Source: an uncultured bacterium (lineage in GTDB: Bacteria; Oederibacteriota; PGYV01; CAWJRG01). From it: a stretch of DNA of 64,000 nt. The stretch is from contig CAWJRG010000005.1 in assembly GCA_963845185.1 (NCBI GenBank), forward strand, positions 256,001-320,000, given 5' to 3'. The translations under genes were made by a program, and so were the position numbers. How positions within the stretch are numbered: the first letter of the stretch is position 1; every line of letters starts with the position of its first letter. Shown here piece by piece: positions 15,553 to 62,831 of the stretch. The notes under the pieces are model-generated. The model had not been told where the DNA came from, made no database searches, and worked only from the letters and a program-made list of their open reading frames with translations.

Positions 15553-16473
15553 TTAAAAAAATACCGCAAGCGAAAGCTTATGGTCAAATTCGTCCTGAGC
15601 AAGGATGGTTTCTTTTAAAAATGCGTAATCAAGCTGTACTAAAAAATTTGCTATCTGGTATTTTATCCCGCCGCCAAGGGTGTAGTTGGATTCATAACTT
15701 TTTATGTCGTAATACCCGCCTGCCCTGATAAAAAATATTTTTATGAAGGATGCTTCGACGCCGGACCTTAGTGTCACGCCTTCAAACTCGTTTTCCTCAG
15801 CATCGATTGACACCGAAAGCAACTCCGGCAAAGCATCGATTTTAGCGCCTATCTTCATGTCAAGGGGAATCTGCTCCGTTGTTCCCGTTGACCAGTTCAA
15901 AAAGTTTGCCAAATCCTGAAGCATTACTCCAAACTGTACTAAAGGGATCGGCCTTATCATGACTCCTACGTCGCAGCTGATGCCGAAAGCAGGCACGCCC
16001 GAGTTGTTTATTGACAATATTTTTAAATTACCTCCGACAGAAAACCCCTTTGTTAATTCCCGCGCATAAGTAACGAAAAAAGCATTTTCCGTATCCGACA
16101 AAGGCGTAAAAGCCTCGGTATCGGTCTGTCTGCCTTCAATGCCGCTTATTGAAAAATTAATCCAGTTCAGGGCAAAGCTGCCAATCTGCGAAGGATAAAT
16201 TAAATTAAAAAAATTGTACGATCTGTCCTCGGTCATCCATGAAACCATTGTATTAAGTGCCATCTGGTTTATATAAACAGTTGCTGCCGGGTTCCAGTAC
16301 GGCACCGAAGGGTCGTCAGAGTATGCGGTAAAAGCGCTGCCCAGTGCCAGTCCTCTTGCTCCCACACCGGCGCGTAAAAACGGAGCTGCCCCGCCGGCAG
16401 CTCCGGTGATGCCGAAAATACCGTCAGCCAGTAATAATGACACTACAATAGCAGTAAAAATTGTTTTCTTCAA
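15553..16473 (-). CDS. PorV/PorQ-like (UPF0164) outer-membrane beta-barrel
   Basis: Signal peptide, FLRAGVGARGLALGSAFTAYSDD..YWNPA motif, amphipathic strands, C-terminal Phe. Confidence 0.85.
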   Translation of the reverse strand: MKKTIFTAIVVSLLLADGIFGITGAAGGAAPFLRAGVGARGLALGSAFTAYSDDPSVPYWNPAATVYINQMALNTMVSWMTEDRSYNFFNLIYPSQIGSFALNWINFSISGIEGRQTDTEAFTPLSDTENAFFVTYARELTKGFSVGGNLKILSINNSGVPAFGISCDVGVMIRPIPLVQFGVMLQDLANFLNWSTGTTEQIPLDMKIGAKIDALPELLSVSIDAEENEFEGVTLRSGVEASFIKIFFIRAGGYYDIKSYESNYTLGGGIKYQIANFLVQLDYAFLKETILAQDEFDHKLSLAVFF

Positions 16474-16526
16474 ATTCGAAACTCCCTTGCTTTCCGTTCA
16501 GAACCGGTTTACGCGTGCATAAAATG

Positions 16527-16557
16527 ATACAGGGCGGGCTTACCGCCCGCCCTGTAT
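16527..16557. terminator. Strong intergenic hairpin (terminator or mRNA stabiliser)
   Basis: Perfect 13-bp stem ATACAGGGCGGGC-ttacc-GCCCGCCCTGTAT; only a weak U tract on the minus strand. Confidence 0.5.
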
Positions 16558-16587
16558 ATTTGCCGCGTTCTGCCTGCGGCATGGATT

Positions 16588-18258
16588 TTATTTTACAACC
16601 GAGATTTTCTTTGTTACGGTCTTTGTCTTTGAAGCTACCCTTAAAATATACACCCCATTGGCCACGTTCGCACCGCTGTCATTTACGCAGTTCCACTGTA
16701 TTGCATTGACGCCGGCAATTACGTCTGCCGCGCTTAAATCTTTGTGCCATACTGTCCTGGCGTTTATATCAGTTATAATTATCTTGATATCCTGCGCGGT
16801 TACAAGCGGGAACCTTATTGTGGTTGTCCCCTTGCAGGGATTGGGATAGTTGTATACGTTTTTCTCCGACATCTCTTCGGTAATGTTTATCTTATAAACT
16901 GACTGTTTGCCCACATTGCCGGCAGAGTCCTTTACAGCCGCGGTAAATACCCACGGGCCGGTTTCAAGTCCGGATAATTTTATATCCGGTGAAGCGCTGA
17001 ATACAGCCTTGTCCGCTGAAAAAGCACCGGAATTTTTAGAAACACAGTACATGTATCCTGCTATGCCGTTTAAGTCGTCCTGCGCCTGCATATGTATTAC
17101 AGGAGAGTTGTCAGCGTACCACATGCTCTGTTCCGGATGGGACGAGGAACTGACCACCGGCGCAGCAGGCGGTTCCTGGTATATTACCCTAACTGTATTG
17201 GTCCTCATATGCGTGAACACTATATCATTCAGGCCGTCGCCGTTGACATCGCCCGCAGTAACTTCCACCGGGCCGAAAGTCTGGTCTTTATCGTCTGTTA
17301 CTTTATAGCTTTTTACCACCTGGAATACATTATCTTTCTGCATAATTATATCGATGCTGTCGCTGTCCCTGTCTGCCGTGATGATTTCATTCTTGCCCCC
17401 TCCTGTAACGTCAGCCACGCACATCCCGTTTGGCCTGAGGCCCGCCAGCTTTACAGTCGTTGTCAGCGTTAAGTTCGGCCCTTCAAGTATGGAAACCGTG
17501 TTATCGTAAAAATTCGCCGTTATAATATCGTTGCTGTCGTTGTTCATTACATTTGCTATTGCCACTTTGCAAGGCCCGCTTCCCGTTGCTATGTCCTTTT
17601 CCTTAACAAGCCCCGTGGCCGCGAGTTTTATGACGCTCACGTTTGCCGAGTTGTAGTTCGCGCTCACAACAACGTTTTCATTGCCTATTTTTCCCATGGC
17701 CACATCCGTGGGGTTCCCCGGCACCGGTATTTCCAGTTTCTGCGTATTTTTTGTCAGTTCATTCATTATAACGACAACTTTGCTGTCGTTATAAACCGCG
17801 CACGCTATGTCCGGCTGGCCGTTATTGTCCAGGTCGCCTATCGCCACTCCTACCGGATGTTTTCCGACTGCAATCGTGTCTTTTAATACTGGTGTGCCGT
17901 TTTCGTTCGTATATACCATTAAAGTGCCGTCATCGTAATTTGATATGACTAACATGCCGTTCCATATTGCCACGCCCCTCGGTGATTTCCCGGTCTGCAC
18001 CGGTATTGATAAAGCGTTGGTATTTGAAAAAATGGAAACAGACGAATTCGGCGTGTTTGAAGTATCCTGGCCTATCAGCGTGCCTGCCCCGAAATTTGCG
18101 ACAATTACCTGGTTTTTCCCGTTTGCAATTAAATCCCCTATGGCAATTCCCCTGGGACATACACCCGTTGACACTGTAGTAATATTTGACAGGTTATTCG
18201 CGTTAACTGTCCCAAAAACCAAAAGAACTACTGCTAAAACAACCATTGTTTTTTTCAT
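16588..18258 (-). CDS. Secreted FG-GAP/VCBS-repeat beta-propeller protein with FlgD/T9SS-type C-terminal domain
   Basis: Signal peptide; GDLDNNGQPDI and GDVNGDGLNDI repeats; C-terminus YNYPNP...WNCVNDSGANVANGVYILRV...KKISVVK. Confidence 0.85.
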   Translation of the reverse strand: MKKTMVVLAVVLLVFGTVNANNLSNITTVSTGVCPRGIAIGDLIANGKNQVIVANFGAGTLIGQDTSNTPNSSVSIFSNTNALSIPVQTGKSPRGVAIWNGMLVISNYDDGTLMVYTNENGTPVLKDTIAVGKHPVGVAIGDLDNNGQPDIACAVYNDSKVVVIMNELTKNTQKLEIPVPGNPTDVAMGKIGNENVVVSANYNSANVSVIKLAATGLVKEKDIATGSGPCKVAIANVMNNDSNDIITANFYDNTVSILEGPNLTLTTTVKLAGLRPNGMCVADVTGGGKNEIITADRDSDSIDIIMQKDNVFQVVKSYKVTDDKDQTFGPVEVTAGDVNGDGLNDIVFTHMRTNTVRVIYQEPPAAPVVSSSSHPEQSMWYADNSPVIHMQAQDDLNGIAGYMYCVSKNSGAFSADKAVFSASPDIKLSGLETGPWVFTAAVKDSAGNVGKQSVYKINITEEMSEKNVYNYPNPCKGTTTIRFPLVTAQDIKIIITDINARTVWHKDLSAADVIAGVNAIQWNCVNDSGANVANGVYILRVASKTKTVTKKISVVK

Positions 18259-18271
18259 GTTTTTCCTCCTT

Positions 18272-18433: not shown

Positions 18434-18453
18434 TTCCTACTTTTACTTATATA

Positions 18454-18482
18454 ATTATATATCCTATTATCCTGATTGTCAA
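18454..18482 (-). promoter_or_regulatory. Consensus sigma70 promoter TTGACA-N17-TATAAT
   Basis: Perfect match on the minus strand upstream of 16588..18258. Confidence 0.8.
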
Positions 18483-18542
18483 GACTGTCTAAAAATTTGT
18501 ATTACGTTCCTAAAAGTGATATAAAAATATGTCTATAATAAC

Positions 18543-18607: not shown

Positions 18608-20068
18608 TTAAAACGCGTACTTTGCCGAAATCTGGGAAGCTATTGAGCCCGGCATTTTCAAGTTCAGGCTGCCGATATTGGCTACAGGAAGCCAGTCCGC
18701 ATTGATTCCGCCTGTAATCGTCGCGTCAATTGTGGCTGCTCCCACTTTGATTGAAACGCCGCCTGACATATTTACGGAATTGTTAAATCCAAAGTCCATT
18801 GTCATTTTTGGCGCCGGATTATGTGTTACCCCGCCGGTGACTGTCTGTGTTTGTTGCAGGCTGACGCTGTTTATCAAGTTCTTGCTCAAGCCGCCTCTTA
18901 CAACCAGCGCGTCATTGAGTTTTCCTTCTGCTGCAACATAAAGCGGTATGCTTACAACCGACATGTCAATTTCCTCATTGTCCACAACTGTGCCAGGATT
19001 TACCAGCGTATACTTGTATGTTTCTTTTGCTGATGCATAATCAATGGCTAATCCCGGAATTAGTGTCACTTTATCATTTAAGGCAAGATTTGACCCAGCG
19101 CCGAAGTTTATTCCGATCAAACTGCGTGTATCGACTTCTTTATCATTGGTATCGAGCGCGCTTGTAAAATTTCCATCGTAAGGAAAATCACCATCAAGCT
19201 GCTGAGTATCTGTTGTCTGCATATTATCAAACGTAAAACCAAGGCCGACAATAATAGGAGCAACAATAGACGCAAGGTTTGCCCTTGCGTTTAATCCAAA
19301 ATCTATACCGGAATTTGATTGTAAGGTTTCCGACTGAAAAAGATCTTTGTTTGCGTAATTAGTATCTGTCCCTTTATTGTTGATCATTGGCAATGAAATT
19401 GAAATGCCTAAATCAACCATATGCACGCTTAAACCCAATCCCAGATTAATTGCCGTTGACCCGTTTGAAAAATTTTCAAGGGTTCCGTTATTGCCCGCCG
19501 GGTTTGTTAAACTGTTTTTTTCGCTCTGGGAACTGTCCGCAAGGCCCAGCATAATGCCTGCCGACATTACTCCCAGCCCAATATCCGGGATCTTCATCCC
19601 ATAAAGCAGCCCATAGGACCTGTCAGGCGTAAGTATTGTGTGCGGGTCCTCCCCAAGATTACTGGTAATAAACCCGGCTCCAAGGCTCATCATATTCGGC
19701 GGCATTAAGAGCGAACCCTTGTAAGGCAGCGCAAATACGCCAATCACGCTTTTCTCAAGACTGAGCGTGATATATCCGCTGTCCGGAGTTGTTACCTGCT
19801 GAATAATTGAAGCGTTAATACCGCCCCCTGTCATTTCGGTATACAGCAAATTAATCGTGCCCATTGTGTCCAGGCTTACCGAAGAATTTGAGTTTACTGC
19901 AATCAGGTCTTTGTAGTTCACTGCCTGGCCAGGAAATGTAGCGATTAAAGAATCATCAGAGCTTACCATCCACGCAGGCACGCCAAGCCCGGCTATTCTT
20001 GAATTCGTCGCAAAAACCATTCCGCAAAAAGCCAAAACAACCGCAATAACCAATAAAGTTTTTTTCAT
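18608..20068 (-). CDS. Putative outer-membrane beta-barrel protein
   Basis: AGGAGG RBS, signal peptide, Gly-rich amphipathic strands, ends ISAKYAF. Confidence 0.75.
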   Translation of the reverse strand: MKKTLLVIAVVLAFCGMVFATNSRIAGLGVPAWMVSSDDSLIATFPGQAVNYKDLIAVNSNSSVSLDTMGTINLLYTEMTGGGINASIIQQVTTPDSGYITLSLEKSVIGVFALPYKGSLLMPPNMMSLGAGFITSNLGEDPHTILTPDRSYGLLYGMKIPDIGLGVMSAGIMLGLADSSQSEKNSLTNPAGNNGTLENFSNGSTAINLGLGLSVHMVDLGISISLPMINNKGTDTNYANKDLFQSETLQSNSGIDFGLNARANLASIVAPIIVGLGFTFDNMQTTDTQQLDGDFPYDGNFTSALDTNDKEVDTRSLIGINFGAGSNLALNDKVTLIPGLAIDYASAKETYKYTLVNPGTVVDNEEIDMSVVSIPLYVAAEGKLNDALVVRGGLSKNLINSVSLQQTQTVTGGVTHNPAPKMTMDFGFNNSVNMSGGVSIKVGAATIDATITGGINADWLPVANIGSLNLKMPGSIASQISAKYAF

Positions 20069-20199: not shown

Positions 20200-21159
20200 T
20201 TACAGCTGCAACTCAAGCGAAAGTATGTGTGTGTTGTCGAAAACACCCACGCCGTTCCAAAAAACCGGCCTGTATGTGTAATTAACTGAAACAATGCCGA
20301 ATTCAAACTGCGTAATGGACAGCCCTACGCCCAGTGATATAAAAGACGGTGATTTTAAATCCAGGTTCAAAGTGTATCCTGCCCTGAGAAAAAATATTTT
20401 TGCTACGCCGTCTTCAAGTCCGAACGCAACCTGGCCGGTGTCGTAAAAATCCTGGATATAATCAACATCCACAAGCAATAAATTATTTTTCTGCAAATCT
20501 ATCTTATAAGCCGCGCCGAGGCGCAGTGTCAGCGGCAGCGGTTCGCTGTCCTTTATCAGCGTTACCGGCATGCCTAAATTCTGGAGCACAGCTCCGAATT
20601 TAAGGTTTGAACCCGGCGGCGTAAGCTGGGCCCCCAGATCAAGAGCGTAAGCCGTAAGAGGATATATGCCGATATTCTCGTAAATTATTTTCAGGTTCAT
20701 TCCCACGTCAATGTTTTTATTGAAATCCCCGGGAAGAAAATAATCAAGCTTCGACGCATAGGTTCCCGCAAGCACAAAATCATAATAATTTACCGGCGCA
20801 TCGGTGGCATTTTCGTTTGATATTGTCGGCATATACCTGTAAACCCCTGAAATGCCCACTTTGCCTTCTACAAAAAAGTTTTCAAGGCTTTGCGCGTACG
20901 ATATATTGTGCACGCCAATATCGGCGAAAGAAAACCAGTACATGTACTGCATTTGTATTTTTGTTATATCGGCAATGCCTGCCGGATTGTAATTTATGGA
21001 TTCGACATCGTTGCCAGCGGCAGTATACGCGCTTCCCATGCCTGTTGCCCTGCCGCCGACCGCGACATTTAAAACGTCCCCTATTGTGGTGCCTGCGGCG
21101 TATATGTTGACGGATATGAGGATGATGGCCATGCCTGCGACTAATGTTTTAACTTTCAT
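20200..21159 (-). CDS. PorV/PorQ-like (UPF0164) outer-membrane beta-barrel
   Basis: LNVAVGGRATGMGSAYTAAGND...YNPAG, QNLG...LPLTLRLG, LRAGY. Confidence 0.85.
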   Translation of the reverse strand: MKVKTLVAGMAIILISVNIYAAGTTIGDVLNVAVGGRATGMGSAYTAAGNDVESINYNPAGIADITKIQMQYMYWFSFADIGVHNISYAQSLENFFVEGKVGISGVYRYMPTISNENATDAPVNYYDFVLAGTYASKLDYFLPGDFNKNIDVGMNLKIIYENIGIYPLTAYALDLGAQLTPPGSNLKFGAVLQNLGMPVTLIKDSEPLPLTLRLGAAYKIDLQKNNLLLVDVDYIQDFYDTGQVAFGLEDGVAKIFFLRAGYTLNLDLKSPSFISLGVGLSITQFEFGIVSVNYTYRPVFWNGVGVFDNTHILSLELQL

Positions 21160-21228: not shown

Positions 21229-21918
21229 TTATTTCAGTTTTCTGTAAAGCTTGAATAATTCCTTAAATGCCCTTAATATGACTTTTATCTTCGCGCCGGT
21301 CTGTGCTCCTGCCGTCCGCGGATAATGGTGAACTCCCACTTCCTTTATTTTATAACCCATCTTATTTGCCTTTGCCAGCAGTTCGGTTGAAATCATGGCG
21401 CCCTCAGCCTCAGGCTTTGCCCTGTCTATTATTTCTTTTTTAAAAAGCTTGAAAGCGCAGTCAACATCCCGCACCTTGAAACGGAAAAGCAGCTTAACCA
21501 TGGTGCCCCACGCGAAAGCGTTCAGCTTCCTCATAAAAGAATCTGCCCTTTTTATCCGGTATCCGGCTATGAAATCCGCTTCATTCGTGTATTTAGCGAG
21601 CTCTTTGATTTCATTGACGTCAAACTGCCCGTCGCCGTCGGTAAAAAATACCCATTCCAGCCTTGCGCCGTATAAACCCGATTTAACCGCTGCGCCGTAA
21701 CCCTTGTTTGTTTCGTGGTTTATGACCCTTATTTTGGGGTTTTCCTTTGCGAGCGCTTCGGCTATCTCGCGTGTCCTGTCCTTTGAGCCGTCATTTACAA
21801 CAATAACCTCATAGTCACTGCATATTTCAGAAAGGACTTTCGCTGTTTTTCTTGTGAGTGCCTCTATGTTTGCTTCTTCGTTATGCGCCGGAAAAAACGC
21901 TGAAATCTGCAAGCCCAT
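21229..21918 (-). CDS. GT2 glycosyltransferase, DPM1-like polyprenol-phosphate sugar synthase
   Basis: PAHNEEANI, VNDGSKD, NKGYGAA, TDGDGQFD, DVDCAFKLF, HYPRTAG. Confidence 0.85.
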   Translation of the reverse strand: MGLQISAFFPAHNEEANIEALTRKTAKVLSEICSDYEVIVVNDGSKDRTREIAEALAKENPKIRVINHETNKGYGAAVKSGLYGARLEWVFFTDGDGQFDVNEIKELAKYTNEADFIAGYRIKRADSFMRKLNAFAWGTMVKLLFRFKVRDVDCAFKLFKKEIIDRAKPEAEGAMISTELLAKANKMGYKIKEVGVHHYPRTAGAQTGAKIKVILRAFKELFKLYRKLK

Positions 21919-21952: not shown

Positions 21953-23254
21953 TCACTTTTCTTTCAATATTATACCGCTTACTTCATTCGCAACCCTTAT
22001 GCTGTAGCTCATTCCCCTGTCCTCGGGATACACCTGGCTCATATTCGCTATGTACAGGTTTTTTACCGGCGTCCTGTAATCAAGCTTTATTTTCGAATAT
22101 TCCTTTTCAATCACAGGCTGGCTGAACGGCTCCCTGAACACCCTCCACTCTATAACGTCATTCGGGTCAAACTTGGGATTTATCTGCTTGAGGTACGCAA
22201 AGAAAATTTCCTTAACTTCCTCGTTTGGGGCCTTGTAAAGCGCGTCATCCGTTGACAGGTATTTTCCTAGGTAAATAATCACATTGTTGTTGTAGTGTTC
22301 CTTCGGCATGAAATTTGTATGCTCCACCGCCGCCACAAAAGGCGACTGCCTGTCGCCTATGTTCAGCCAGTATATCTTGCTCAATGATTTTTTTACGGCC
22401 ATGACAAGGTTCAGCGCGCCGTAATACTGGATTTTGCCCAGCCGCTCCATGTAGGCTGTGTCCGGGAATTCCACCATGTGTTTAATAAGAGCCGGCGCGC
22501 AGGTAAGGATGATTTTATCAAACTTGTATTCCCTGCCCCTTGCCTCCAGTCCGACGGCAGTTCCGTTTTCGATGAAAACCCTGTTGCCGGAAACTCCTTT
22601 TAAAATCGATACCCCCTGCTTTATATTGACGGATTCCAGCTCGTCTATGAGCGTTTGGAATCCGTCAAGAATATAGCCCAGGACTTCTTTTGTGCCTCCC
22701 TTTTCGCGCGAAGCAAAGCGCGCATGAATCCTGCCGTAAAGCCAGGCCATTGCGATATCTTTTGCCTTGTCGCCGAACTTCTGCTCAAGCAGAGCCCCCC
22801 ACACGACCTTATATACTTTTTTGCCTATATATTTTTCTATCCATTCTTTTACTGTTATCTTCTCGTATTTTTTCCAGTTTTTTACCCTGGCGAGGTATAC
22901 CGTCATTAACCCGAGCTTTATCCTGCTGATTATAGACAAAGGGGAAAACAGCATCAAGTCCATAGGCGTGGTAAAATTATGAATTTTCCCCTTATAGTAA
23001 AATCCGACTTTTGACTCTATCCACCAGAGTTTGTCGGTAAGTCCTAATTCGTCCACCAGTTTTATGATATCAGTATCGCTTTTAAAAATATGCCGGTAAA
23101 ATTTGTCGAGCCTTGATCCGGCGAGCGTGAAACCCTGCGCAAGTCCGCCAAGCTCAATGTTGGACTCAAAAATAGTTACTTTATGCCCGGCGCCCGAAAG
23201 CCGGTATGCCGCCGTAAGGCCAGCTATGCCTCCTCCGACAATAGCAATATTCAT
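21953..23254 (-). CDS. FAD-dependent oxidoreductase (amine oxidase/protoporphyrinogen oxidase-like fold)
   Basis: IAIVGGGIAGLTAA Rossmann motif, LGGLA, FYRHIF, C-terminal YPEDRGM. Confidence 0.85.
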   Translation of the reverse strand: MNIAIVGGGIAGLTAAYRLSGAGHKVTIFESNIELGGLAQGFTLAGSRLDKFYRHIFKSDTDIIKLVDELGLTDKLWWIESKVGFYYKGKIHNFTTPMDLMLFSPLSIISRIKLGLMTVYLARVKNWKKYEKITVKEWIEKYIGKKVYKVVWGALLEQKFGDKAKDIAMAWLYGRIHARFASREKGGTKEVLGYILDGFQTLIDELESVNIKQGVSILKGVSGNRVFIENGTAVGLEARGREYKFDKIILTCAPALIKHMVEFPDTAYMERLGKIQYYGALNLVMAVKKSLSKIYWLNIGDRQSPFVAAVEHTNFMPKEHYNNNVIIYLGKYLSTDDALYKAPNEEVKEIFFAYLKQINPKFDPNDVIEWRVFREPFSQPVIEKEYSKIKLDYRTPVKNLYIANMSQVYPEDRGMSYSIRVANEVSGIILKEK

Positions 23255-24269: not shown

Positions 24270-27200
24270 TTATTGCCTTATCAGAAATATTTTCCCGAGA
24301 TAATTGCTTTTATTGTTGTCCCATGATATCACAAAATAATAAATTCCTGCTGAAACATCGATATTGTAAGCGTTCTTACCGTCCCAGTCAACATGCGAAT
24401 TGATTTCCTTGAAAGACTTCACTTCCTCCCCCGATACCGTGTAAATCAGCACCTGCGAACCCGCCGGAAGATTGTCGAATTTGAGCCTGTGATTATAGGC
24501 TGTGTTCGGGTTAAACGGGTTCGGGTATATGACTATGTCCCCTACGCTGATAGTCAGCGAACCGCATATAAAATTCCTGTCCTGGTTAAAAGCGACATCA
24601 TGATACGATCCTGTCAGGCCGCCTATTGTTATGGTGTCGCCTGTCACCAGGTTATTGCTCGTCTGCAGGGTAAAATATATTGTTGTGCTTCCGCCTGCGG
24701 CCAAATTGCCCACGTCATAACTGAAGACATTGCCGTTAAGTGTCCAGCCGGCATTTCCCGGGTCAGTTGTCGAAAAGCTTGTATTCGCCGGCAGGGTGTC
24801 CCAGATTATCACGTTTGATGCCTGTGAACCCGGATTTGTTATAACAACCATAAGCTGCACGGGCCCGCCGGGCATTGTTGAGTAATTCACTGCCTGCAGT
24901 ACCATGGTAGGCATGGCAGGCACCGGCGATGGTGTTGCGGTAACCGTAGCGGTATCTGTAACCGTATAGGTCGCGGTGGAAGTCGGGGTTATTGTTGCAG
25001 TCGCTGTAATAGTAGGGGTATTTGTAGCTGTATAGGTTGCGGTGGAAGTAGGGGTTATTGTATATGTTGGAGTTATTGTCGGCGTATCCGTGGGCGACAA
25101 TATCGGCGTATTGGTGCTGGTCTGCGTAATTGTAAGAGTTGGCGTATCCGTAACTGTATTTGTGTATGTTGCCGTCTGTGTAGAAGTGTCTGTACCAGAA
25201 GGCACAGGTGACGGAACTATGCACGACACATTGAATATTGTCTGGTTTGAGAATATAGGCGCGCCAGTACCGGATAACCCGCCCACATTCGTGAAACTCT
25301 GGCTGCATGCATTCGTAGTTGCCCACCATGTGTATGAGCCGCTCTGGTCTCCCACAGTTCCCAGGTTCCAGCTGACCATTGGACTTGTAGTTCCTGCGGC
25401 CGGATTTGAACCTGAGTATGTCAATCCTGTTGGTAAGGTATCGTACAATACCGCGTTTGCCGATAAACTCGTTGGCGATGACAGGGAAAAATTATTATAT
25501 GAGTCCTGCGTTGTGCCGTCATTGTTATTGCCCTGCTCGCCCAAGCCAGGCCTCCAGTCTGAACTGTTCCCGCCGTGGTCAGGGCATTCCCAGTTTGGGT
25601 CTGTGTTTGATGTGGTATCGGTCCAATCTAACTGGTATGCAGTGGGCTCTGCCGTATTCACCGGCCATATTTTTGCCTGGAAACGAAATCCGTTATTGCT
25701 AACCAGTATTTTTATCCTGTACCATGTATTGCCCGTTATTACAAGACTTCCCGGATTCACATTAGCCGGCCAACTACAGCCTCCGCCGCCGCATTTTTGT
25801 ATGCCAACATATCCGCCAGCTGGAAAAGTGTCTATTGATAAAAGTAATGAATACGCGTACCCGGCAGCGCCGGACTTCCCGTTACTGCGGATTGTTATGA
25901 GGGCGTCTGAACCAACAAAATTACCCGGGTTTATCATTACATCTGATTCTATTATCCCTGAATCGCAAAGCTGTACGTTGTCCGTGTTTCCTGAAGCGTC
26001 ATCCAATAGCAAAGAAGGGTATTTTGATGCGCTTGATACGCTGCCTGTTATTATTTTATCTCCTGTATTGCAAGCGTCGCTTATTGTCCATGTTCCATAC
26101 TGCCCGCTGCCGTTGCCGTCCGGAATCATTTTCCATCCAGGCGGCGGCGCTGCAGGGTTCGTGTAAGCGCCCAAATTATTGTCGTCAAACGTCCTCACTG
26201 CCTTCAATGAATCGCCGCTTATATTGTAGTTTAAATAATAAGTTATTGTTACCACGTCGGTCGGCGCTTTTACAAAAGTGCTTACGCTCTGCAATTTCGT
26301 CAGCGACATAGCCACATTTCCCACTGTGATTGAAGTTGATGCGTTGCTGTTGTTTGACCCGCTTGTGCCGGTGGCAGAGTTTGTCACGACTATACCCGGA
26401 GCTATTGCCGTGGACATGCTCAGCAGCATCCACACGCTGCCTGTAGCTGTGTATACCGAGCTTGGGAATGTCCATACGATGTTGCCTGATGTCGAGCCTA
26501 CAGGCGGCGCGGTTACAGTGCCTGTGCCGGGCATGGGGTTCGGGCCGTAATCTACCAGCGCCAGGCTGCCCCCGCCAGGTATGGCGTCGGTTATTTGCAA
26601 CGGGCCGTTTCCGTATGTATAATTAATTGAAAAAAATACCAGGTCTCCCACGTTCTGGAGCGTGCCCTCCACGCTCTTGGAAATGCTTACCGTATCCAGC
26701 GGCGGGATTGGAAGCGGCATAGTCAGTGTATATTGGCTCGAGCTGCATAAGCCTGTCCAGTCGCTGCCCTGCATCTCGTAATTTTTGCATCCTACATGCA
26801 GGTATAAACTGGTCGCGCTGCATCCTGCCTGGCCCAGTTCGCTCGGCTCCGGCATTGTAAGGTTGAATTGCTGCGTAAGAATTGCGCCGTCATCTGAACC
26901 AGAACCGCATGTCATGCATGTAAGCGTGACGCCATACCCCGGTCCGGTACCTGCAGATATTGCTATGCCTAACGAGCCTGATGTCGGATTCGTGGTATGC
27001 GCGTCAATGCCGCTGTTGCTGACAAGGAATACCTGGCCGCCTGTGTTGGGCGGAATAAAAGACGAGTTGGTCCCTATGGCAATTGCCATGACTGCCGGAT
27101 TGACATATTGTCCCACGCAATACTGGATTGTGATGTTGAACTGCTGTCCCCATCCGGGATTTGTAGGATTTATGCTGACCGAAACAATTGAAGGGTCTCC

Positions 27201-27275
27201 CGCGTATGCTGCGTCCGCGTAAAAAAATATTGATATCATTAACATAAAAAATAATAATATTTTATATTTCATCAT
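24270..27275 (-). CDS. Secreted surface protein: Cys-rich tip, DUF11-like domains, lectin-like insert, short Thr stalk, extra DUF11-like domain, T9SS-like CTD
   Basis: Signal peptide, [29 protein letters not shown] motifs, C-terminus IYPNPFNP...IYTVSGEEV...WDGKN...SAGIYYF. GGAGG favours a start at 27272/27275 over 27296. Confidence 0.85.
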   Translation of the reverse strand: MMKYKILLFFMLMISIFFYADAAYAGDPSIVSVSINPTNPGWGQQFNITIQYCVGQYVNPAVMAIAIGTNSSFIPPNTGGQVFLVSNSGIDAHTTNPTSGSLGIAISAGTGPGYGVTLTCMTCGSGSDDGAILTQQFNLTMPEPSELGQAGCSATSLYLHVGCKNYEMQGSDWTGLCSSSQYTLTMPLPIPPLDTVSISKSVEGTLQNVGDLVFFSINYTYGNGPLQITDAIPGGGSLALVDYGPNPMPGTGTVTAPPVGSTSGNIVWTFPSSVYTATGSVWMLLSMSTAIAPGIVVTNSATGTSGSNNSNASTSITVGNVAMSLTKLQSVSTFVKAPTDVVTITYYLNYNISGDSLKAVRTFDDNNLGAYTNPAAPPPGWKMIPDGNGSGQYGTWTISDACNTGDKIITGSVSSASKYPSLLLDDASGNTDNVQLCDSGIIESDVMINPGNFVGSDALITIRSNGKSGAAGYAYSLLLSIDTFPAGGYVGIQKCGGGGCSWPANVNPGSLVITGNTWYRIKILVSNNGFRFQAKIWPVNTAEPTAYQLDWTDTTSNTDPNWECPDHGGNSSDWRPGLGEQGNNNDGTTQDSYNNFSLSSPTSLSANAVLYDTLPTGLTYSGSNPAAGTTSPMVSWNLGTVGDQSGSYTWWATTNACSQSFTNVGGLSGTGAPIFSNQTIFNVSCIVPSPVPSGTDTSTQTATYTNTVTDTPTLTITQTSTNTPILSPTDTPTITPTYTITPTSTATYTATNTPTITATATITPTSTATYTVTDTATVTATPSPVPAMPTMVLQAVNYSTMPGGPVQLMVVITNPGSQASNVIIWDTLPANTSFSTTDPGNAGWTLNGNVFSYDVGNLAAGGSTTIYFTLQTSNNLVTGDTITIGGLTGSYHDVAFNQDRNFICGSLTISVGDIVIYPNPFNPNTAYNHRLKFDNLPAGSQVLIYTVSGEEVKSFKEINSHVDWDGKNAYNIDVSAGIYYFVISWDNNKSNYLGKIFLIRQ

Positions 27276-27323
27276 TCCTCCCGGACTTGCTTTCATCCTG
27301 ACACCGCCAAAAAATGACTAAAC

Positions 27324-30017: not shown

Positions 30018-30950
30018 ATGGTAAAAATTGAAGACATAATGGTCAGAGATGTGCTCACAGGCAAGAAAGACGACGGCATTATTTCCCTTGTCGAAAAAAT
30101 GCAAAAACACCACATCGGCGACGTGGTCATAGTCGACATTGATAATGTCCCCATAGGCATTATCACCGAAAGGGATATTATAAGAGGGCTGTTTAATTTC
30201 AAGGAAGAACTTCTGCATAAAACCGCGCAGGACTTAATGAGCGCGCCTGTGGCTTCCCTGGAACCCCAGGAAGATATTGAGACAGCCGTTATTTTTATGT
30301 CGTTAAACAGGATAAAAAGGGTCCCTGTCACCCATGACAACAAACTGGTCGGTATCATAAGCTACATGGACATAACCCAGGCCTTAAGGAAAGGCTATTA
30401 CCTTCTCGAGGAAAAGGCTGAAATCCTGGAAGACAGGGTAAACAAGGATTCGCTCACAGGCCTTTATAACAAGGGCTACATGATAAAGGCGCTGAGAAAG
30501 CACATAAAGCTCGCCAAAAGGAACAATACCATGCTCGCGATAATGATGATAGACCTGGATTTTTTTAAGAAGGTAAACGACACTTACGGTCATTTGTGCG
30601 GCGACGAGGTGTTAAAAACCCTGTCAAACCTTTTGCGCGAAAAGTCGCGCGCCGTGAACATCATCTGCAGGTACGGCGGCGACGAATTCATAATCATCGC
30701 GCCCATGGCAAACTTCAAATCCGCGAATTATTTCGCGGAAAGGCTGAGGGCCGCTGCTGAAAATTACGAGTTTTCCTGTGCTGAAAACAAGATCCGCCTT
30801 ACCCTGAGCATAGGGATTGCCCTGTGGAACCCGAAAATCAAAAACGGTCGCGAACTCGTGAAACAAGCCGACCAGGCGCTTTATGCGGCAAAAAGGAACG
30901 GCAGGAACCAGGTCCAGACCGCAGGCCTGGAAGTAAAATACGTGGAATAA
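30018..30950 (+). CDS. CBS-pair plus GGDEF diguanylate cyclase
   Basis: Two CBS motifs (GIITERDI, GIISYMDI), DSLTGLYN, DLDFFKKVNDTYGH, RYGGDEF, ADQALYAAK. Confidence 0.95.
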   Translation: MVKIEDIMVRDVLTGKKDDGIISLVEKMQKHHIGDVVIVDIDNVPIGIITERDIIRGLFNFKEELLHKTAQDLMSAPVASLEPQEDIETAVIFMSLNRIKRVPVTHDNKLVGIISYMDITQALRKGYYLLEEKAEILEDRVNKDSLTGLYNKGYMIKALRKHIKLAKRNNTMLAIMMIDLDFFKKVNDTYGHLCGDEVLKTLSNLLREKSRAVNIICRYGGDEFIIIAPMANFKSANYFAERLRAAAENYEFSCAENKIRLTLSIGIALWNPKIKNGRELVKQADQALYAAKRNGRNQVQTAGLEVKYVE

Positions 30951-52986: not shown

Positions 52987-55347
52987 TTATTTCTTTACTT
53001 TTTCCGCATGCTGAATCTGGTTATATAAATTTACAAGCTGCGGATCGTTGCCAAAGACCTGCATTGCCTCTCTTAAAGTGTTTAAAGCCTTGTACGGTTG
53101 TCCTAGTTTAATATATGTTTGGGCTATATCAGTATAATTTACGGCACTTTTATCTGATTCCGATGCTTTCTGAAAGTACTTTAATGCTTCTTCAAAATTA
53201 TTGATTTTAAAATTACATATCCCCATATTTTTATATACTTCAACCGCGGCGTAATTCTGTTCAAGTAAAAATCCGAATAAATCGAGTGCTTTTAAATACC
53301 TGCCCGAAGCCATAAATGCTGCAGCCTGTCCGGATAGCGCTTTAAATTGTGAATAAGTATTTATTTCATCTATCTGATTTACATATTGTTGAAGCATGGC
53401 CTTATTATCACTGCCGTATTGTATTGCTTTTTCAAACATTTCTTTAGCCATAGGCCATAATCTTTCATTAAAATAAATTCCGCCCAATACCTCATATGCC
53501 TTATAATAATTTTCCTTTGCTCTAAAAGTCTCTTTTAAATATTTTATCTGGTTATCTTCGTCACTGATCGCTTTATAAGCCAAAAATAAATCATAATAAG
53601 TATAAGCCTTTGCTGAATTCCAGGGAAATAACAATGCGTATTTATAAGTTTCTATTGCTTCCTTGTATCTTTTTTCATCAAAAAAATCATATGCTTGATT
53701 TGTTAATTGTGCGCTGTACAGCGATATAAGAGCTTTGTCATAATCATCTTTGGCCGCGAATATCCCCCTGAATGCATAATTTTTAAATATCCCCGCCGGA
53801 ATGTGTTCGTTTTCGGCCGCAACCCTAAGCAACAGGCCTTTTGATTTTAGTTTAAAATTACCAATGTGATTTTTCATTTTTCCGGGAAAACCCTGTGAAA
53901 AATAAATGTTTTTTTCAGGAAAATACTTTCCGGTTATATTGCCTATATTGTCCATTACATTTAAATAACCCTGCTTAAGGGTAATTTGCCCGTATTTTTT
54001 TACAATGCTGTTGATTCCCCATTCATGTGAAAGATTATATATTGTCAGAATATTGATGTTGTCCGCTTTATGTTGCACTATCTGCCTGTAGCTGGCCGGC
54101 AGTGCATAATTGTCCCCGTAAGGTATGTAAAAACTCCCTGGTTCCATAGTCGCGGCCACATTATTTTCAAAATCGTAGGAAAGGTAATTAACGCTGCTAT
54201 TATTTATACTGAAATTCAAAAAACCGGCACATAATAAAATTACGATTGAAAGAGAGTAAAACGTATTTTTTAAAAATATCGCTTTTGCGTTTTTTGACAA
54301 TAAATGCATTCCGTTAATTAAAAAAATAAACAGTATATAGATGCTCGGCATTAGGAAGGTTCCCGTTGCCCATTTATATATTTCACCCAAACGCAAAGAA
54401 AATACAACTATGAATAAATTGGTTAAAAGCATACTGAGATAAAAAAATAGAATTTCCTTTTTCCTGCGCCAAAGCTCATAAATACCCAAAATTATGAATA
54501 TCCAGAATACATAAAAATCTTTTAGTAATAAAGTAATAATTTCTTCTATTTGATAATTATTAATGTCTAAATTTGGCAAAGTTTTATGTTCATAACCTGA
54601 TAAAAAAATTAGCCGGAGGAAATCGCCGATATTATCAGGCCTGTCAATAAAAACAAAAATATTCTCATTTTGTATTCTTAAAGGCAAAAAAGCGTATACG
54701 CTTAATCCCAATAATAATAATATTAAGGATATTATGAGATTTTTTACGGCTAATTTTTCCCGGTATTTATAAAAAATATATCCCAGGGCCGGAAAAAAAA
54801 TCAGCATACTCGGCCAATGGTTTGTCAATGAAAGTCCAAAAATATAAATTAACAGGTAAAAACGCCCGGTATTAAATGTGTAAAACAAATTAAAACTTAG
54901 GTATATTAATGCCGATAAAAACAATAAATTCAGTATGTATATCCCGCCTTTTGCCTCAATAGTTTGATTCCAAAACAAAAAGGAAAAAGCCATGACAAAA
55001 ACCCCAAAACAATTTATGATTTTGTTATTGTCGTTAAAAATAAAATAGATATTTTTTTTGATTATGAAATAAAAAAGCAGCAGGGCCATCAGGCCGAGAA
55101 ATATTGCAAATAAGTTTATTCTGAAAGCAGGCGAACCAACCGGCAATAAACTAAATATTTTAGCCGCCATTGTAAAAAGCGGGTATCCCGGAGGGTGGCT
55201 TATTCCGAGGGTATATGCAGATGTTATTGTTTCAGGCGAGTCGTCATTTTTAAATGTCGGAAATGTAGTATATAGATATATTTGAAATATCCCGGCTAAA
55301 GAAACTATTAGTATTATAATTTCTTTGTATTTTTTAATCATTTTCAC
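52987..55347 (-). CDS. DUF2723 / TMEM260-like membrane glycosyltransferase with C-terminal TPRs (tandem paralog)
   Basis: Same motifs as 50314..52650; near-identical N-terminal region. Confidence 0.85.
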   Translation of the reverse strand: MKMIKKYKEIIILIVSLAGIFQIYLYTTFPTFKNDDSPETITSAYTLGISHPPGYPLFTMAAKIFSLLPVGSPAFRINLFAIFLGLMALLLFYFIIKKNIYFIFNDNNKIINCFGVFVMAFSFLFWNQTIEAKGGIYILNLLFLSALIYLSFNLFYTFNTGRFYLLIYIFGLSLTNHWPSMLIFFPALGYIFYKYREKLAVKNLIISLILLLLGLSVYAFLPLRIQNENIFVFIDRPDNIGDFLRLIFLSGYEHKTLPNLDINNYQIEEIITLLLKDFYVFWIFIILGIYELWRRKKEILFFYLSMLLTNLFIVVFSLRLGEIYKWATGTFLMPSIYILFIFLINGMHLLSKNAKAIFLKNTFYSLSIVILLCAGFLNFSINNSSVNYLSYDFENNVAATMEPGSFYIPYGDNYALPASYRQIVQHKADNINILTIYNLSHEWGINSIVKKYGQITLKQGYLNVMDNIGNITGKYFPEKNIYFSQGFPGKMKNHIGNFKLKSKGLLLRVAAENEHIPAGIFKNYAFRGIFAAKDDYDKALISLYSAQLTNQAYDFFDEKRYKEAIETYKYALLFPWNSAKAYTYYDLFLAYKAISDEDNQIKYLKETFRAKENYYKAYEVLGGIYFNERLWPMAKEMFEKAIQYGSDNKAMLQQYVNQIDEINTYSQFKALSGQAAAFMASGRYLKALDLFGFLLEQNYAAVEVYKNMGICNFKINNFEEALKYFQKASESDKSAVNYTDIAQTYIKLGQPYKALNTLREAMQVFGNDPQLVNLYNQIQHAEKVKK

Positions 55348-55715: not shown

Positions 55716-55743
55716 AAAAAAGGCGGCTTTCGCCGCCTTTTTT
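55716..55743. terminator. Intrinsic terminator
   Basis: AAAAAAGGCGGC-tttc-GCCGCCTTTTTT right after the stop at 55776. Confidence 0.88.
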
Positions 55744-58700: not shown

Positions 58701-61700
58701 CGATAATATCACAATAGTGAATGTCATTGTTATCGTATATGTTGGCGTTATTGTAGATGTGTCAGTAGGCGTCACTGTAACAGTATTCGTGTACGTGGAT
58801 GTGTATGTCACCGTGCGCGTGTATGTTGGAGTCGGCGATGCCGTATTTGTATATGTCGGTGTCGCCGTAGGCGTGTCGGTCAGCGTGAATGTGGGCGTGA
58901 ATGTCCTGGTAAATGTCACTGACACCGTGATTGTAAGGGTTGAAGTGAAAGTCGGCGTCGCTGTTACAGTATCGGTGAATGTGGATGTATATGTAACTGT
59001 CTGAGTGTAAGTAGGGGTTGGCGATGCTGTAATTGTATATGTAGGAGTATTCGTAGGCGTCGATGTTTTTGTATCCGTCAATGTCACGGTATATGTAGGG
59101 GTATTTGTAGGTGTTATAGTAAATGTCGGCGTATATGTCGCGGACAGTATCACAATCGTGAATGTCATTGTTATCGTGTATGTAGGCGTTATTGTGGGCG
59201 TTGCTGTAGGTGTATAAGTCTTTGTGTCCGTGTTTGTGTATGTATATGTCACTGTATTAGTGTACGTGGGCGTCGGCGATGCCGTGTTTGTAAATGTAGG
59301 TGTAGCCGTAGGCGTATAAGTCAGCGTGAATGTAGGCGTATATGTCTTTGTAAAAGTCACTGACACTGTGATTGTCACCGTATCAGTGTACGTCGGCGTC
59401 GCTGTAACTGTAATAGTGTATGTGTATGTATATGTCACTGTCTGCGTGTATGTGGGCGTAGGCGATGCTGTATTTGTAAATGTCGGCGTATTTGTCGGCG
59501 TATAAGTCCGGGTGAATGTCGGCGTAAATGTATATGTATATGTCGGCGAAAGCGTGTTTGTGAATGTCGGCGTAGGTGTTGCCGTATTCGTAGATGTGTA
59601 TGTCGGCGTATATGTCCTGGTAAATGTCACGGTATTTGTATATGTCGATGTCAAAGTCACTGTAATAGTGTATGTGTATGTATATGTCACGGTCTGCGTG
59701 TATGTGGGCGTCGGTGTTGTAGTGTTTGTGAATGTAAGCGTCGCCGTGGGCGTATCAGTCAGTGTATAAGTAGGCGTATAAGTCCTGGTATATGTAACGG
59801 ACACTGTAATTGTAACGGTATAAGTGTATGTCGGCGTAGGGGTTATGGTTATAGTATCCGTGTATGTGTATGTAACTGTGCGCGTGTATGTCGGCGTAGG
59901 CGTAGTTGTGTCTGTAAACGTAGACGTCGGCGTAGGCGTGTCGGTAAGCGTGTATGTAGGCGTATCTGTCTTGCTGACTGTCTGGGTCACTGTATTTGTC
60001 ACGGTCAGAGTATAAGTCGGCGTCGGAGTAACTGTAATAGTGTCTGTGAATGTATATGTAACTGTCACCGTGTACGTATATGTCGGCGTATATGTCTTTG
60101 TATATGTAGGCGTAGGCGTGAATGTAAATGTAGGCGTGCTTGTATCTGTGTATGTCGGCGACAGCGTGTTTGTAAGTGTATATGTGTATGTCGGTGTGTC
60201 ACTCCTGGTGTATGTCGGAGTGGGCGTCATTGTGTATGTCGGCGACAGAGTGTTTGTGAGTGTGGGAGTCGAAGTATATGTAACTGTTTTCGTAAATGTG
60301 TATGTCGGTGTTATTGTGAAAGTCGGCGACGAGCACTGGTCTGACAGAAGCACCGTGGATACAGGCGATGGCAGGCCGTTCCATCCGAGCGAAACGTTAT
60401 TGTGCCAGTTGCATGTGTTGTTTGACTGGGCATTGTCAAGGGCCATTACCCACGTAAAGCATCCAGTAAACCCTGTGGGTGTCGGCACCAACACAAATGT
60501 GGTCCAATATTGGCTCGGGGAGCCAACGCTGGCTGTCAGGGAATATATACCATTGCCTGCCGGTTGTATGTTATACGGGGTATTATACTGCCACTGGTCT
60601 CCCGGAGAGCTCGACCAGTCGTCATAAACAGTAAAATTCTGCATTATCGCGCCGCTGTTGTTGCATACCACAATGGTAAATGACAGCTGGTCTGTTTTTA
60701 CTATATTTGTGGTTTTGCTGGATGTTTTGGATATTGTAAATGCAGGAGTGGATGTTGGCGTGACCGTGGGTGTCGGCGATATGCAATTTACGTTAAATAC
60801 AACCGGGTTTGAGTATACTGTCGCAGGACCGCCTGCCCCCGTGCCTGATATGCCTGCCGTGTTTGTAAAGCTCTGGTTGCAGGCTGATGTCGATGCCCAC
60901 CACGTATATGACCCGCTCTGGTCGCTGATATTGCCGAGGCTCCAGTTTAACATACTGCCTGACAATGTCCCGGCCGGGTTTGAACTCTGGTATGTCAATC
61001 CAGTGGGTATTGTGTCAAACAATACAGTGTTTGCCGAAACCCTGGTGTTGTAAGTCATAAAATTATTGTATGAATCCTGCGTTGTGCCGTCCTGGTCATT
61101 TCCCTGCTCGCCCACGCCCGGCCTCCAGTCAGAGTTTGTTCCGCCGTGGTCAGGGCATTCCCAGTTTGTATTTGACTGGTCAGCGGCAGGCGCGGTCCAA
61201 TTTAGCTGAAATGCTGTTGGCTCTGCTGTGCCCACCTGCCATATCTTTGCCGCAAAAGTAAATCCGTTTCCGCTTATTTGTATTTTTACCCTGTACCATG
61301 TATTGCCTGTTATTACAAGTGTTGCAGGGTCAACATAAGTTGGCCATGAGCATGTCCCGCCTCCGCATTCCTGTACTCCCACATACCCGCCCGCAGGCGC
61401 TGTATCAATCGACAGCAGCAAAGAATATGCGTAACCGGCGTTTCCTGTCAGCCCGTTGCTTCGCATTACTATTAAGGCGTCAGATCCGGAATAAGAGCCC
61501 GGATTTATCATTACATCTGATTCTATGATTCCTGAGTCGCACATTTGTGCGTTTGCCTCGTTGGCAGGGTCGTCTAAAAGCAAGTCAGGATAAACCGATG
61601 TCCCGGTTACGCTGCCTGTCATTATCCTGTCTCCTGTGTTACAGGCGTCGCTTATTGTCCAAGTGCCGTTCTGGTTGTTTTGCGGCAGGAACTTCCATCC

Positions 61701-62831
61701 GCTCGGAGCAGTAGTGCTTGATGACCCGTTTGCATCGTCGTCAAACATCCTTATTTCCTTAAGCACGTCTCCGTTTATCTGATAATTAAGGTAATATGTT
61801 ATTGTCACTGACGCGCTCGGCAGTTTCAGGAATGAATTAATGCTTTCTGATTTTTGCAGGGACAGGGCAACTGTGCCCACTGTGAGGTTCGCCGTGGAGT
61901 TGGATGTTGCCGAACCGTTTGTACCTGTGACAGTGTTCGTTATAACTGTGCCTGTTGCTATTGCGCATGTCATCTGCAGCAGGATCCAGACCGTACCTGA
62001 CTTGGTGTAGGTCGTGCTCGGCATAGTCCATGACACTGTGCCTGAAGTTGAGCCAAGCGCAGGTGCGGTTACCGAACCCGTGCTTGGCGCTGGGTTCGGG
62101 CCGTAATCAACAAGCGCGAGGCAACCTCCACCGGGTATCGGGTCTGTTATTGTGGCAGCGCCGTTGCCGTATGTGTAATCAACAGAATAAAGGACTTTGT
62201 CTCCTACAAGCGCGAGCGTGCCCTGCACATTCTTATGCACGGTTACTGACTGCGCCGGCGTCGGAAGAGACCAGTTTAAGGAAGTAATATCGCATGCTGC
62301 CATGCCCTGGCCCCAGTTCTGCATATTATTATTTTCATAAGCAGCATAAAGGTATAAGGTTGATGCACCGCACCCGGATGCTCCCATATCAGTAGCCTGC
62401 GGCATTGTAAGCGTATACTGGACTGATACCGTTTCACCGCTTGTCGAGCCGCCGCATTCTGTGCAGTTCGGCGTAAAAGGGCTTGGAATGGAAACAGGCA
62501 GGCCCATCTGGCAGTTGTTCGGGCAAGGGTTCGCAGAATGCACATCGACGCCAAGCACGCTTACCAGGAATACCTGGCCGCCTGTGTTTTCAACCTGCGG
62601 CGTATTATGCGTGCTTACAGCTATGGCAAAGTCTCCGGCATTATACTGGTCAACGCAGTATGTGGCATAAACATTGAACTGCTGTCCCCATCCGGGGTTT
62701 GTGGGATTCATGGTCAATGAAACCATTCCGTCGGCTTTTATTATGGAAGGAATCAATAGAATTGATAAAATTATAAGGCACAAAGTGCCGCTTTTGAATG
62801 CTTTAGGCGTTTTACTCAATAACTTTTTCAT
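55776..62831 (-). CDS. Giant secreted Thr-x-Thr repeat surface protein, subtype B (2351 aa)
   Basis: Start moved to ATG 62831: [11 protein letters not shown] aligns with [11 protein letters not shown] of the paralog, and TTG 62888 lies inside the promoter. Same architecture as the family. Confidence 0.9.

Follow-up and report, generated by a model that had tools for sequence, protein, structure and literature searches.

Secretion and protein glycosylation systems with parts resembling those described here are known from several lineages. The secretion system of type IX (T9SS) has been described as confined to Bacteroidota or to the FCB group; in Bacteroidota a SprA translocon works with one general PorV barrel, and a motor is needed for release of cargo from the translocon (PMC10994853). 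In Flavobacterium johnsoniae, cargoes with type B C-terminal domains (CTDs) are paired with PorP/SprF shuttle barrels (PMC12618676). Among glycosylation systems, human TMEM260 (GT117; structure 9rql) joins a PF11028 GT-C module to a Rossmann-like region and TPRs, Haloarcula hispanica has Agl22/Agl23 and the TIGR03662 (DUF2298)/TIGR03663 pair, and streptococcal GtrB/PgtC2 and Pgf, dedicated envelope glycosyltransferases concerned with extracytoplasmic Thr-rich regions, provide a functional precedent (PMC12041528). Here we analyze a window of 64,000 nucleotides (C5:256001-320000 of the source genome, an assembly of 3.50 Mb that is 99.4% complete) that carries an array of secreted proteins with Thr-rich stalks, two DUF2723 (TMEM260-like) genes, PorV-like barrels, a glycosyltransferase of family 2 (GT2) and a flavin adenine dinucleotide (FAD) oxidoreductase. 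The best explanation for the whole, to which we assign a probability of about 0.5, is a hotspot of phylum-wide T9SS-like export combined with glycosylation by the GT2, the FAD enzyme and Agl23-like and DUF2298 proteins.

The closest named PurM matches belong to Candidatus Goldiibacteriota/Goldbacteria (64-72% identity), and the named homologues of the stalk proteins' head domain are likewise from Goldbacteria. Cellulose binding and cellulases or cellulose degradation are known for this group, and type IX secretion appears in the main text of the same source only in the title of a reference (PMC7031533). A literature search in which subscription journals were thinly covered found no paper that treats glycosylation or a T9SS-like system for Goldbacteria and nothing on the function of bacterial DUF2723 or DUF2298. 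Comparisons were made across 41 genomes of the phylum, 35 with and 6 without tracts matching a (T-x)13 pattern. Our own open reading frame (ORF) calls gave 2847 genes in the source genome, including 130 Thr-rich genes, which occupy 14% of it, and 152 CTD genes (by our own hidden Markov model, HMM), with 104 genes in both sets. The window is one variable hotspot of a genome-wide and phylum-wide surface-display system. A preliminary description of this DNA had presented it as holding donor synthase, transferase, acceptors and export parts. All the parts it named (six paralogues, the DUF2723+TPR pair, the barrels, a further CTD protein, the GT2 and the FAD enzyme) were recovered on the minus strand by position and profile search, but the window is not a self-contained system: key parts are spread genome-wide and the SprA-like gene lies on another contig.

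Export of the CTD proteins through a PorV-family barrel and a SprA-like translocon is very probable. The preliminary description reported no sprA, which is correct for the window; elsewhere in the genome, C9:181574-188011 encodes a SprA-like protein of 2145 aa with N-terminal FnIII domains that matches TIGR04189 (E 3.6e-54) over four colinear segments. A profile built from 18 orthologues matches solved SprA (6h3i, E 4.3e-39), and the gene is found in 40 of 41 genomes, 4 of which exceed the family cut-off. PorV_fam matches occur in all 41 genomes, at 10-46 per genome, with 40 in the source genome (37 genes by our own HMM), where the top-scoring copy, at C1:286027, lies outside the window. Of 37 PorV-like genes, 23 are immediately downstream of a CTD gene, compared to 44 of 1489 background genes. 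This linkage of cargo gene and barrel gene resembles the F. johnsoniae type B pairs, although the CTDs here are type A-like and the barrels belong to the PorV family. Four features of the window concern export:

15553-16473, minus strand: PorVa, a PorV-family barrel (NF033709 111.7, cut-off 90), probably the cognate carrier for the CTD protein with FG-GAP repeats encoded upstream
16588-18258, minus strand: FG-GAP repeat protein with a type A-like CTD and no Thr stalk (PF13517, PF18962; TIGR04183 31.3, cut-off 23)
18608-20068, minus strand: probable outer-membrane barrel (PF13568 E 9.5e-5, below cut-off), a variable insert that none of 11 relatives has at this position
20200-21159, minus strand: PorVb, a PorV-family barrel with no cargo gene of its own (NF033709 134.5, cut-off 90), always behind the GT2 gene

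The FG-GAP/PorVa pair is conserved in 8 of 11 same-order loci. Both window barrels fall short of the strict PorV equivalog NF033710 (36.6 and 47.4 against 250). The predicted complex of PorVa with the CTD of the 16588 protein scored 0.93, with 0.01 for the best of three controls; the mark applied to such models is reached by 116 of 157 solved pairs and by 2 of 215 mismatched pairs. Contact agreement between model runs is 97% or more, the partner's pLDDT is at least 89, and a C-terminal Lys of the CTD makes the lowest-error contact with the barrel. Because a PorV-CTD complex has already been solved (PMC10994853), this result may reflect memorization by the predictor and indicates likeness rather than binding. 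Among the giant stalk proteins, the ORF at 36924 passes PF18962 (28.8, cut-off 27), two others match PF18962 below cut-off, and the protein at 44270 matches FlgD_ig/CHU_C only. The SprA-like gene in 40 of 41 genomes, the placement of PorV-like genes behind CTD genes and the PorVa:CTD model together uphold the T9SS-like route suggested in the preliminary description.

Other results weigh against T9SS-like export or limit it. The SprA-like protein, at 183.7 bits, is narrowly under the TIGR04189 equivalog cut-off of 200, a PDB search with the single sequence found nothing, and the complex modelling was confined to the FG-GAP CTD with PorVa. The searches for motor and sortase components, all run without a positive-control genome, detected GldM and GldN in 0 of 41 genomes and gave a single GldL match (E 0.007), with none over cut-off in the 41. 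GldK, searched in the source genome alone, gave only partial C-terminal matches of at most 45 bits against 350, and PorU was found in 0 of 25 genomes at E <= 1e-20, with 50 of 51 PorU-search matches in the source genome covering the CTD part only. The system resembles the T9SS of Bacteroidota in its SprA homologue, PorV-family barrels, type A-like CTDs and modelled C-terminal Lys contact; it differs in lying outside Bacteroidota, in carrying, in place of a single general PorV, 10-46 matches to the PorV family in each genome, in that GldL/M/N and PorU were not found, and in the FnIII domains of the SprA-like protein and the FnIII-CTD gene beside it. It works like the outer-membrane half of a T9SS and is not classed as a full T9SS. 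In 17 of 21 loci the gene immediately after the SprA-like one encodes an FnIII-rich CTD protein (in the source genome at C9:188047-191457, L003:13048-16458; the other loci are among L010-L029), which is a possible dedicated translocon partner.

The cargo that dominates the window is an array of six paralogues between 24270 and 62888, whose first 700 residues are 42-72% identical to each other, with a further Thr-rich protein at the 5' edge:

1-609, minus strand: 5' end of a distant paralogue, 1649 aa, Thr-rich with a CTD, running past the window edge
24270-27296, minus strand: paralogue 1, 1008 aa, with Ig-like domains and a ConA/L-lectin-like head, a 108-aa stalk, DUF11 and a CTD
27324-29783, minus strand: paralogue 2, 819 aa, with head, 66-aa stalk and CTD
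31055-36715, minus strand: giant paralogue 3, 1886 aa, with head, T-x stalk of about 740 aa, FlgD-Ig domains and CTD
36924-43950, minus strand: giant paralogue 4, split within the stalk into overlapping ORFs at 40126-43950 (1274 aa) and 36924-40217 (1097 aa)
44270-49927, minus strand: giant paralogue 5, 1885 aa, with a stalk of about 890 aa
55776-62888, minus strand: giant paralogue 6, 2370 aa, with a stalk of about 1200 aa made of 62- and 85-residue repeats

The preliminary description had called all of these giant Thr-x-Thr proteins; this holds for four of the six paralogues, one of them split, whereas the other two carry stalks of only 66 and 108 residues. Likewise, the IY.IAGELV tail is present in exact form in four of six, and the proposed seventh paralogue at 1-609 is indeed Thr-rich with a CTD but distant (26-28% identity to the six heads). 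The stalks are 36-46% Thr, with another Thr at position +2 for 83-93% of Thr residues, 9-11% Pro, 11-12% aromatic residues and almost no Gly. A DNA pattern for (T-x)13 matched the source genome 5543 times, compared to 4 times for the reversed control, which places alternating Thr far beyond chance. The long stalks consist of 62-, 73- and 85-residue repeats with fixed hydrophobic positions, and in the paralogue 6 stalk a hydrophobic residue precedes 260 of 552 Thr.

We consider it likely that the stalks bear O-glycans. The strict alternation, the scarcity of Gly, the aromatics and the fixed hydrophobic positions of the repeats set the stalks apart from random mucin sequence and would suit unglycosylated beta-rich rods or fibers with Thr on one face and Tyr, Phe, Val and Ile on the other, in which case the GT2, FAD and GT-C genes would decorate lipopolysaccharide or another envelope polymer. 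The Pro content and the poor conservation of the repeats between genera speak against such rods, as does, weakly, the lack of a confident fold in structure prediction of the stalk (pLDDT 31.7), a result from a 9-row alignment that by itself says nothing either way.

In contrast, the head was predicted with a pLDDT of 85.6 from a 35-row alignment. Its flanks are beta-sandwiches, and its central domain matches ConA/L-lectin folds, namely CBM66 and BT3469 (Z 17.6, rmsd 2.6, 163-185 aligned residues). The giants are probably sugar-binding through a lectin-like or carbohydrate-binding module (CBM)-like head, with the proviso that fold likeness alone shows no function. A Foldseek search with the head as a whole recovered nothing beyond generic Ig-rich structures (TM about 0.15), and every ESM Atlas match to the head was below 0.9 (DUF11 and lectin-like clusters, which serve as leads at most).

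The break in paralogue 4 may be real or an assembly error, and several further Thr-rich genes of the source genome also appear split. A look at sequencing runs turned up no RNA data set and one DNA run (share 0.08), which has no coverage of the break. A conserved programmed frameshift was rejected, as in all the inspected head-plus-second-ORF junctions of relatives except L175 the second ORF starts as a separate secreted protein. Sigma-70-like sites (11/12) with similar flanks lie upstream of three giants (62991-62963, 50111-50083 and 44104-44076, minus strand), which suggests duplicated promoter cassettes and separate transcription of the giants; the numbers of promoter and terminator sites in the region do not exceed those in shuffled sequence (59 against 55 and 24 against 20). 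In most relatives of the same order the hotspot has as its conserved edge a CBS-GGDEF gene, which here lies opposite the array (30018-30950, plus strand), and control of the adhesins by c-di-GMP is possible.

The genomes without tracts allow the genes that accompany the stalks to be separated from those that accompany export. The (T-x)13 tracts are absent from six genomes (G025, G026, G032, G033, G038 and G039, of families f12 and f13, 81-98% complete), and a (T-x)8 pattern was also absent from the four of these that were retested. All six keep SprA and 13-46 PorV matches, which makes f12 and f13 natural controls, with export uncoupled from the putative glycosylation of stalks. Two genes of the window follow the tracts:

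21229-21918, minus strand: GT2, polyprenyl-phosphate glycosyltransferase-like, a single-copy orthologue that follows the Thr-x tracts
21953-23254, minus strand: PRK07233-family FAD oxidoreductase (NF005560 486.7, cut-off 252), coupled to the GT2

With these queries, orthologues of the GT2 and of the FAD enzyme were each found in 33 of 35 tract-bearing and 0 of 6 tract-free genomes; the genomes that have tracts and lack them are 61-84% complete. The order FAD-GT2-PorVb is kept in 11 of 11 same-order loci with no DUF2723 gene nearby, and a Thr-rich or head-family gene lies just upstream in 5 of the 11. A TIGR00374 flippase-like gene immediately precedes the FAD gene in two genomes of other classes, and in G031 and G034 the FAD-GT2 pair ends a run of PMT_2 genes 24-51 kb from DUF2298 and Agl23-like genes. 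These data support, indirectly, the donor supply that the preliminary description attributed to the GT2 and FAD genes. As to its comparison of the GT2 with DPM1, DPMS is among the solved relatives in the PDB (E 2.8e-11), with ArnC (5.6e-14) and GtrB (1e-12) ahead of it, and all NCBIfam polyprenyl-phosphate glycosyltransferase models score far below cut-off. The source genome encodes six GT2s of polyprenyl-phosphate type.

The GT-C census of the source genome comprises 25 PF11028 proteins, 29 PMT_2 proteins over cut-off (two of which are DUF2723 genes) and 13 Wzy_C proteins, numbers that leave DUF2723 far from the sole GT-C candidate. Twenty-seven PMT_2 proteins of the source genome were compared with match loci (30 of 52 and 30 of 62) taken from three genomes with tracts and three without, and this screen singled out an Agl23-like TIGR03663 protein (318.5, cut-off 126.25) adjoining a DUF2298/TIGR03662 protein (523.2, cut-off 300.25) at C5:66173-70598. 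Each of the two is present in 35 of 35 tract-bearing and 0 of 6 tract-free genomes. The DUF2298 search also matches the control genomes Haloferax volcanii and Methanosarcina acetivorans, and the only solved relative of the Agl23-like protein is the GT-C enzyme ArnT (E 4.4e-5). Haloarcula hispanica Agl23 can flip a lipid-linked glycan in vitro and has been described as a putative flippase acting on hexose-phosphate-dolichol donors for both N- and O-glycans (PMC11182771). The likeness to the haloarchaeal pair lies in the TIGR03663-TIGR03662 neighbors, both over cut-off; the differences are that the host here is a diderm bacterium and that the proposed acceptors are stalks of T9SS-like cargo. The streptococcal precedent differs in its enzyme families and in its acceptors, which are short, irregular, disordered Ser/Thr-rich regions on membrane proteins rather than alternating stalks of 1000 residues.

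Four considerations count against assigning stalk glycosylation to this pair. Agl23 was assayed as a flippase and not as a transferase (PMC11182771), the two candidates were chosen post hoc after the screen of 27 proteins, many unrelated genes could share a tract-following profile, and f12 and f13 together amount to only one or two independent events. In a SprA tree with one genome of each, an approximately unbiased (AU) test rejects the union of f12 and f13 under LG+G4 (p 0.023), whereas a mixture model leaves the node unresolved. Large PMT_2 clusters at C9:48434-66983 and C9:464449-473809 (one member checked has PA14) have counterparts in the tract-bearing, and not in the tract-free, loci that were fetched, and their proteins may be further rival transferases.

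The GT2 also bears on the possibility of bare beta-rich stalks. Its nearest solved relatives, ArnC and GtrB, have roles in decorating lipid A and O-antigen, as would be expected if these genes acted on another envelope polymer. The way in which the four glycosylation genes track the Thr-x tracts speaks against this, and we regard unglycosylated stalks as quite improbable.

The preliminary description had cast the two DUF2723 genes within the array as the stalk transferases:

50314-52650, minus strand: DUF2723/TMEM260-like GT-C protein with TPRs, 778 aa, 30% GC, from a clade expanded in the source genome, without an equivalent of R264
52987-55347, minus strand: DUF2723/TMEM260-like GT-C protein with TPRs, 786 aa, 32% GC, with equivalents of D52, H67, Y267 and D441 but not of R264 or R355
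55722-55734: GC hairpin with T runs on both sides (terminator-like), separating the first DUF2723 gene from giant paralogue 6

In that scheme the two enzymes would be dedicated O-mannosyltransferases for the stalks, fed by the window GT2, with the window barrels exporting the products. Some features favor this. Both proteins exceed the PF11028 cut-off (90 bits, cut-off 24.2) and carry TPRs, and the match to human TMEM260 (9rql) has an E value of 4.8e-18 across residues 17-451. Among the 25 paralogues of the source genome, equivalents of D52 (25/25), H67 (24/25), Y267 (25/25) and D441 (24/25) are nearly invariant and are kept in both window copies. Human TMEM260 accepts extended peptides in which Thr is flanked by Ile (bioRxiv 10.64898/2026.03.17.711096), a preference that can be set beside the many hydrophobic-preceded Thr of the paralogue 6 stalk. 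DUF2723 genes lie within 700 bp of a Thr-rich gene in 7 of 25 cases, compared to 73 of 1182 other genes (p 8e-4), and among low-GC genes in 6 of 13 cases compared to 1 of 70; the order degP-giant-DUF2723-giant recurs at the same spot in one close relative (L144). These gene-order results run counter to our preferred assignment. A generic low-GC-island cause of the adjacency was rejected, as only 1 of 70 other low-GC genes adjoins a Thr-rich gene.

The association does not extend to five well-assembled relatives, in which DUF2723 genes adjoin Thr-rich genes in 2 of 45 cases compared to 5 of 105 control genes (p 0.68; 47 copies were called, 2 of them too close to a region edge to be evaluated), and among 61 metagenome loci around the stalk-protein family, 34 of which span at least 9 kb, DUF2723 is present in 3 of the 34, two of these from one assembly. 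The linkage in relatives expected from the preliminary description is thus largely missing. Because 14 of the 16 members of the window copies' clade come from the source genome, the local enrichment rests on recent, non-independent copies. DUF2723 is also decoupled from the tracts: the six tract-free genomes retain 3-16 copies, the tract-bearing G031 and G040 (97-99% complete) have no match, and G027, G028 and G034 have one each. Copy number correlates with tract load within the order (rho 0.53) and not significantly over the 41 genomes (rho 0.24, p 0.13); within the order, copies per Mb show no significant relation to tract load (rho 0.08-0.19). When one DUF2723 protein was used to scan a genome collection, the sole locus recovered was unrelated.

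The donor site provides a further argument. In human TMEM260, R264 binds phosphate, and R264A abolishes activity (bioRxiv 10.64898/2026.03.17.711096). In the R264 column, Arg is present in 20 of 25 paralogues and a basic residue stands one column on in 3 more, while both window copies have Leu-Ser; they are the only 2 of 25 without a basic residue at or beside this column, an alignment-based observation for which compensation elsewhere is conceivable. The terminator-like hairpin also parts the DUF2723 genes from the upstream giant. The likeness to TMEM260 thus covers the PF11028 GT-C module, the Rossmann-like region, the TPRs and the four retained residues, and the differences are the missing R264 and R355 equivalents, the 25 paralogues and the absence from the genome of the TMEM260 IPT sequon, which in strict form has 0 matches in the 2847 ORFs and which is reported to tolerate variation. 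We therefore consider a dedicated role for DUF2723 in stalk mannosylation to be distinctly unlikely.

Somewhat less unlikely, if still doubtful, is an arrangement of two layers, in which Agl23/DUF2298 would serve the stalks and the expanded DUF2723 clade, with its altered donor site, would modify the folded domains of its neighbors (Ig-like, DUF11 or head) or add a second sugar. The domain selectivity of human TMEM260 (PMC10214176; bioRxiv 10.64898/2026.03.17.711096), the concentration of the window copies' clade in the source genome and the excess of DUF2723 genes beside Thr-rich genes over other low-GC genes are consistent with it. The absence of the strict sequon, the 18 of 25 copies that lie more than 700 bp from any Thr-rich gene and the non-independence of paralogues as observations argue against it.

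Other observations on DUF2723 concern its wider distribution. PF11028 matches Bacteroides thetaiotaomicron alone among 14 control genomes. According to a 2025 review, the Bacteroidota O-glycan begins with mannose, the transferase is undiscovered, and homologues of eukaryotic O-mannosylation have been suggested; DUF2723 is an obvious candidate for this enzyme. The one paper found to use the name DUF2723 notes only distant bacterial homologues. A sister lineage of the expanded clade occupies a conserved block (C9:973313-981395 in the source genome; L034, L042, L049, L052 and L064) in which a small CTD protein and a PorV-like barrel face DUF2723 and a sigma-54 regulator, and a Wzy_C-TPR protein usually comes next. 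Core DUF2723 clades often adjoin Wzy_C (O-antigen-ligase-like) proteins with TPRs (L030, L034 and L037), which could be further oligosaccharyltransferase-like enzymes. For another clade, the genes in front are those of a spermidine synthase, an arginase-family protein and a YfhO-like protein (C9:576101-580226; L031, L040, L047, L055 and L063, with neighbors annotated on L031). One expanded-clade copy, at C5:466250-469905, is interrupted by two ORFs that look, by appearance only, like an insertion sequence.

Taken together, the preferred reading of T9SS-like export with GT2/FAD/Agl23/DUF2298 glycosylation can be set out as follows. In sequence, every one of the proteins begins with a signal-like peptide and ends in a type A-like CTD. 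A PorV-family barrel, by homology and modelling, would bind the CTD at the SprA-like translocon and permit transport. Many cargoes would use a carrier encoded directly downstream, as PorVa for the FG-GAP protein, and the giants, which have no carrier of their own, presumably share one, either PorVb or the C1:286027 copy. The searches detected neither a PorLM motor nor a PorN ring or PorU sortase, so that cargo may remain anchored on the barrel. The product would hold an Ig-like and lectin/CBM-like head, modelled in fold and possibly adhesive to polysaccharide, far from the cell on an alternating-Thr stalk of 700-1200 residues. For glycosylation, the window GT2 would put a sugar on polyprenyl phosphate, and the FAD enzyme may modify this sugar. 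Judging from gene profiles, it is plausible, at slightly less than even odds, that the Agl23-like and DUF2298 GT-C proteins (C5:66173-70598 and C5:355409) flip the sugar and attach it, within the periplasm, to Thr of the stalks. The two DUF2723 genes would have arrived in the hotspot as recent copies, and the stalks would not need them. The full combination, a T9SS outer-membrane half with a different motor or none together with dense stalk O-glycosylation by the GT2, the PRK07233 flavoenzyme, Agl23 and DUF2298, is more speculative, and we hold it only tentatively.

The picture that emerges is one of a T9SS-like export half with cognate PorV-family carriers. With the pore in 40 of 41 genomes, 10-46 carriers in all of them and no detectable motor, the power source of release becomes directly testable. 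Thr-rich proteins make up about 14% of the genome in a group known for cellulose binding, which makes their display and protection central to its lifestyle. A lipid-linked O-glycosylation route is probable, and its best-supported members are not the DUF2723 genes; the profile result shifts the focus from TMEM260 homologues to DUF2298 and Agl23-type proteins. The Ser/Thr clusters of haloarchaeal S-layers are O-glycosylated by enzymes that were unidentified as of 2018 (PMC6098224). If the proposed route is correct, it would name candidates for these enzymes, and the widespread orphan DUF2298/TIGR03663 module would gain its first class of acceptors.

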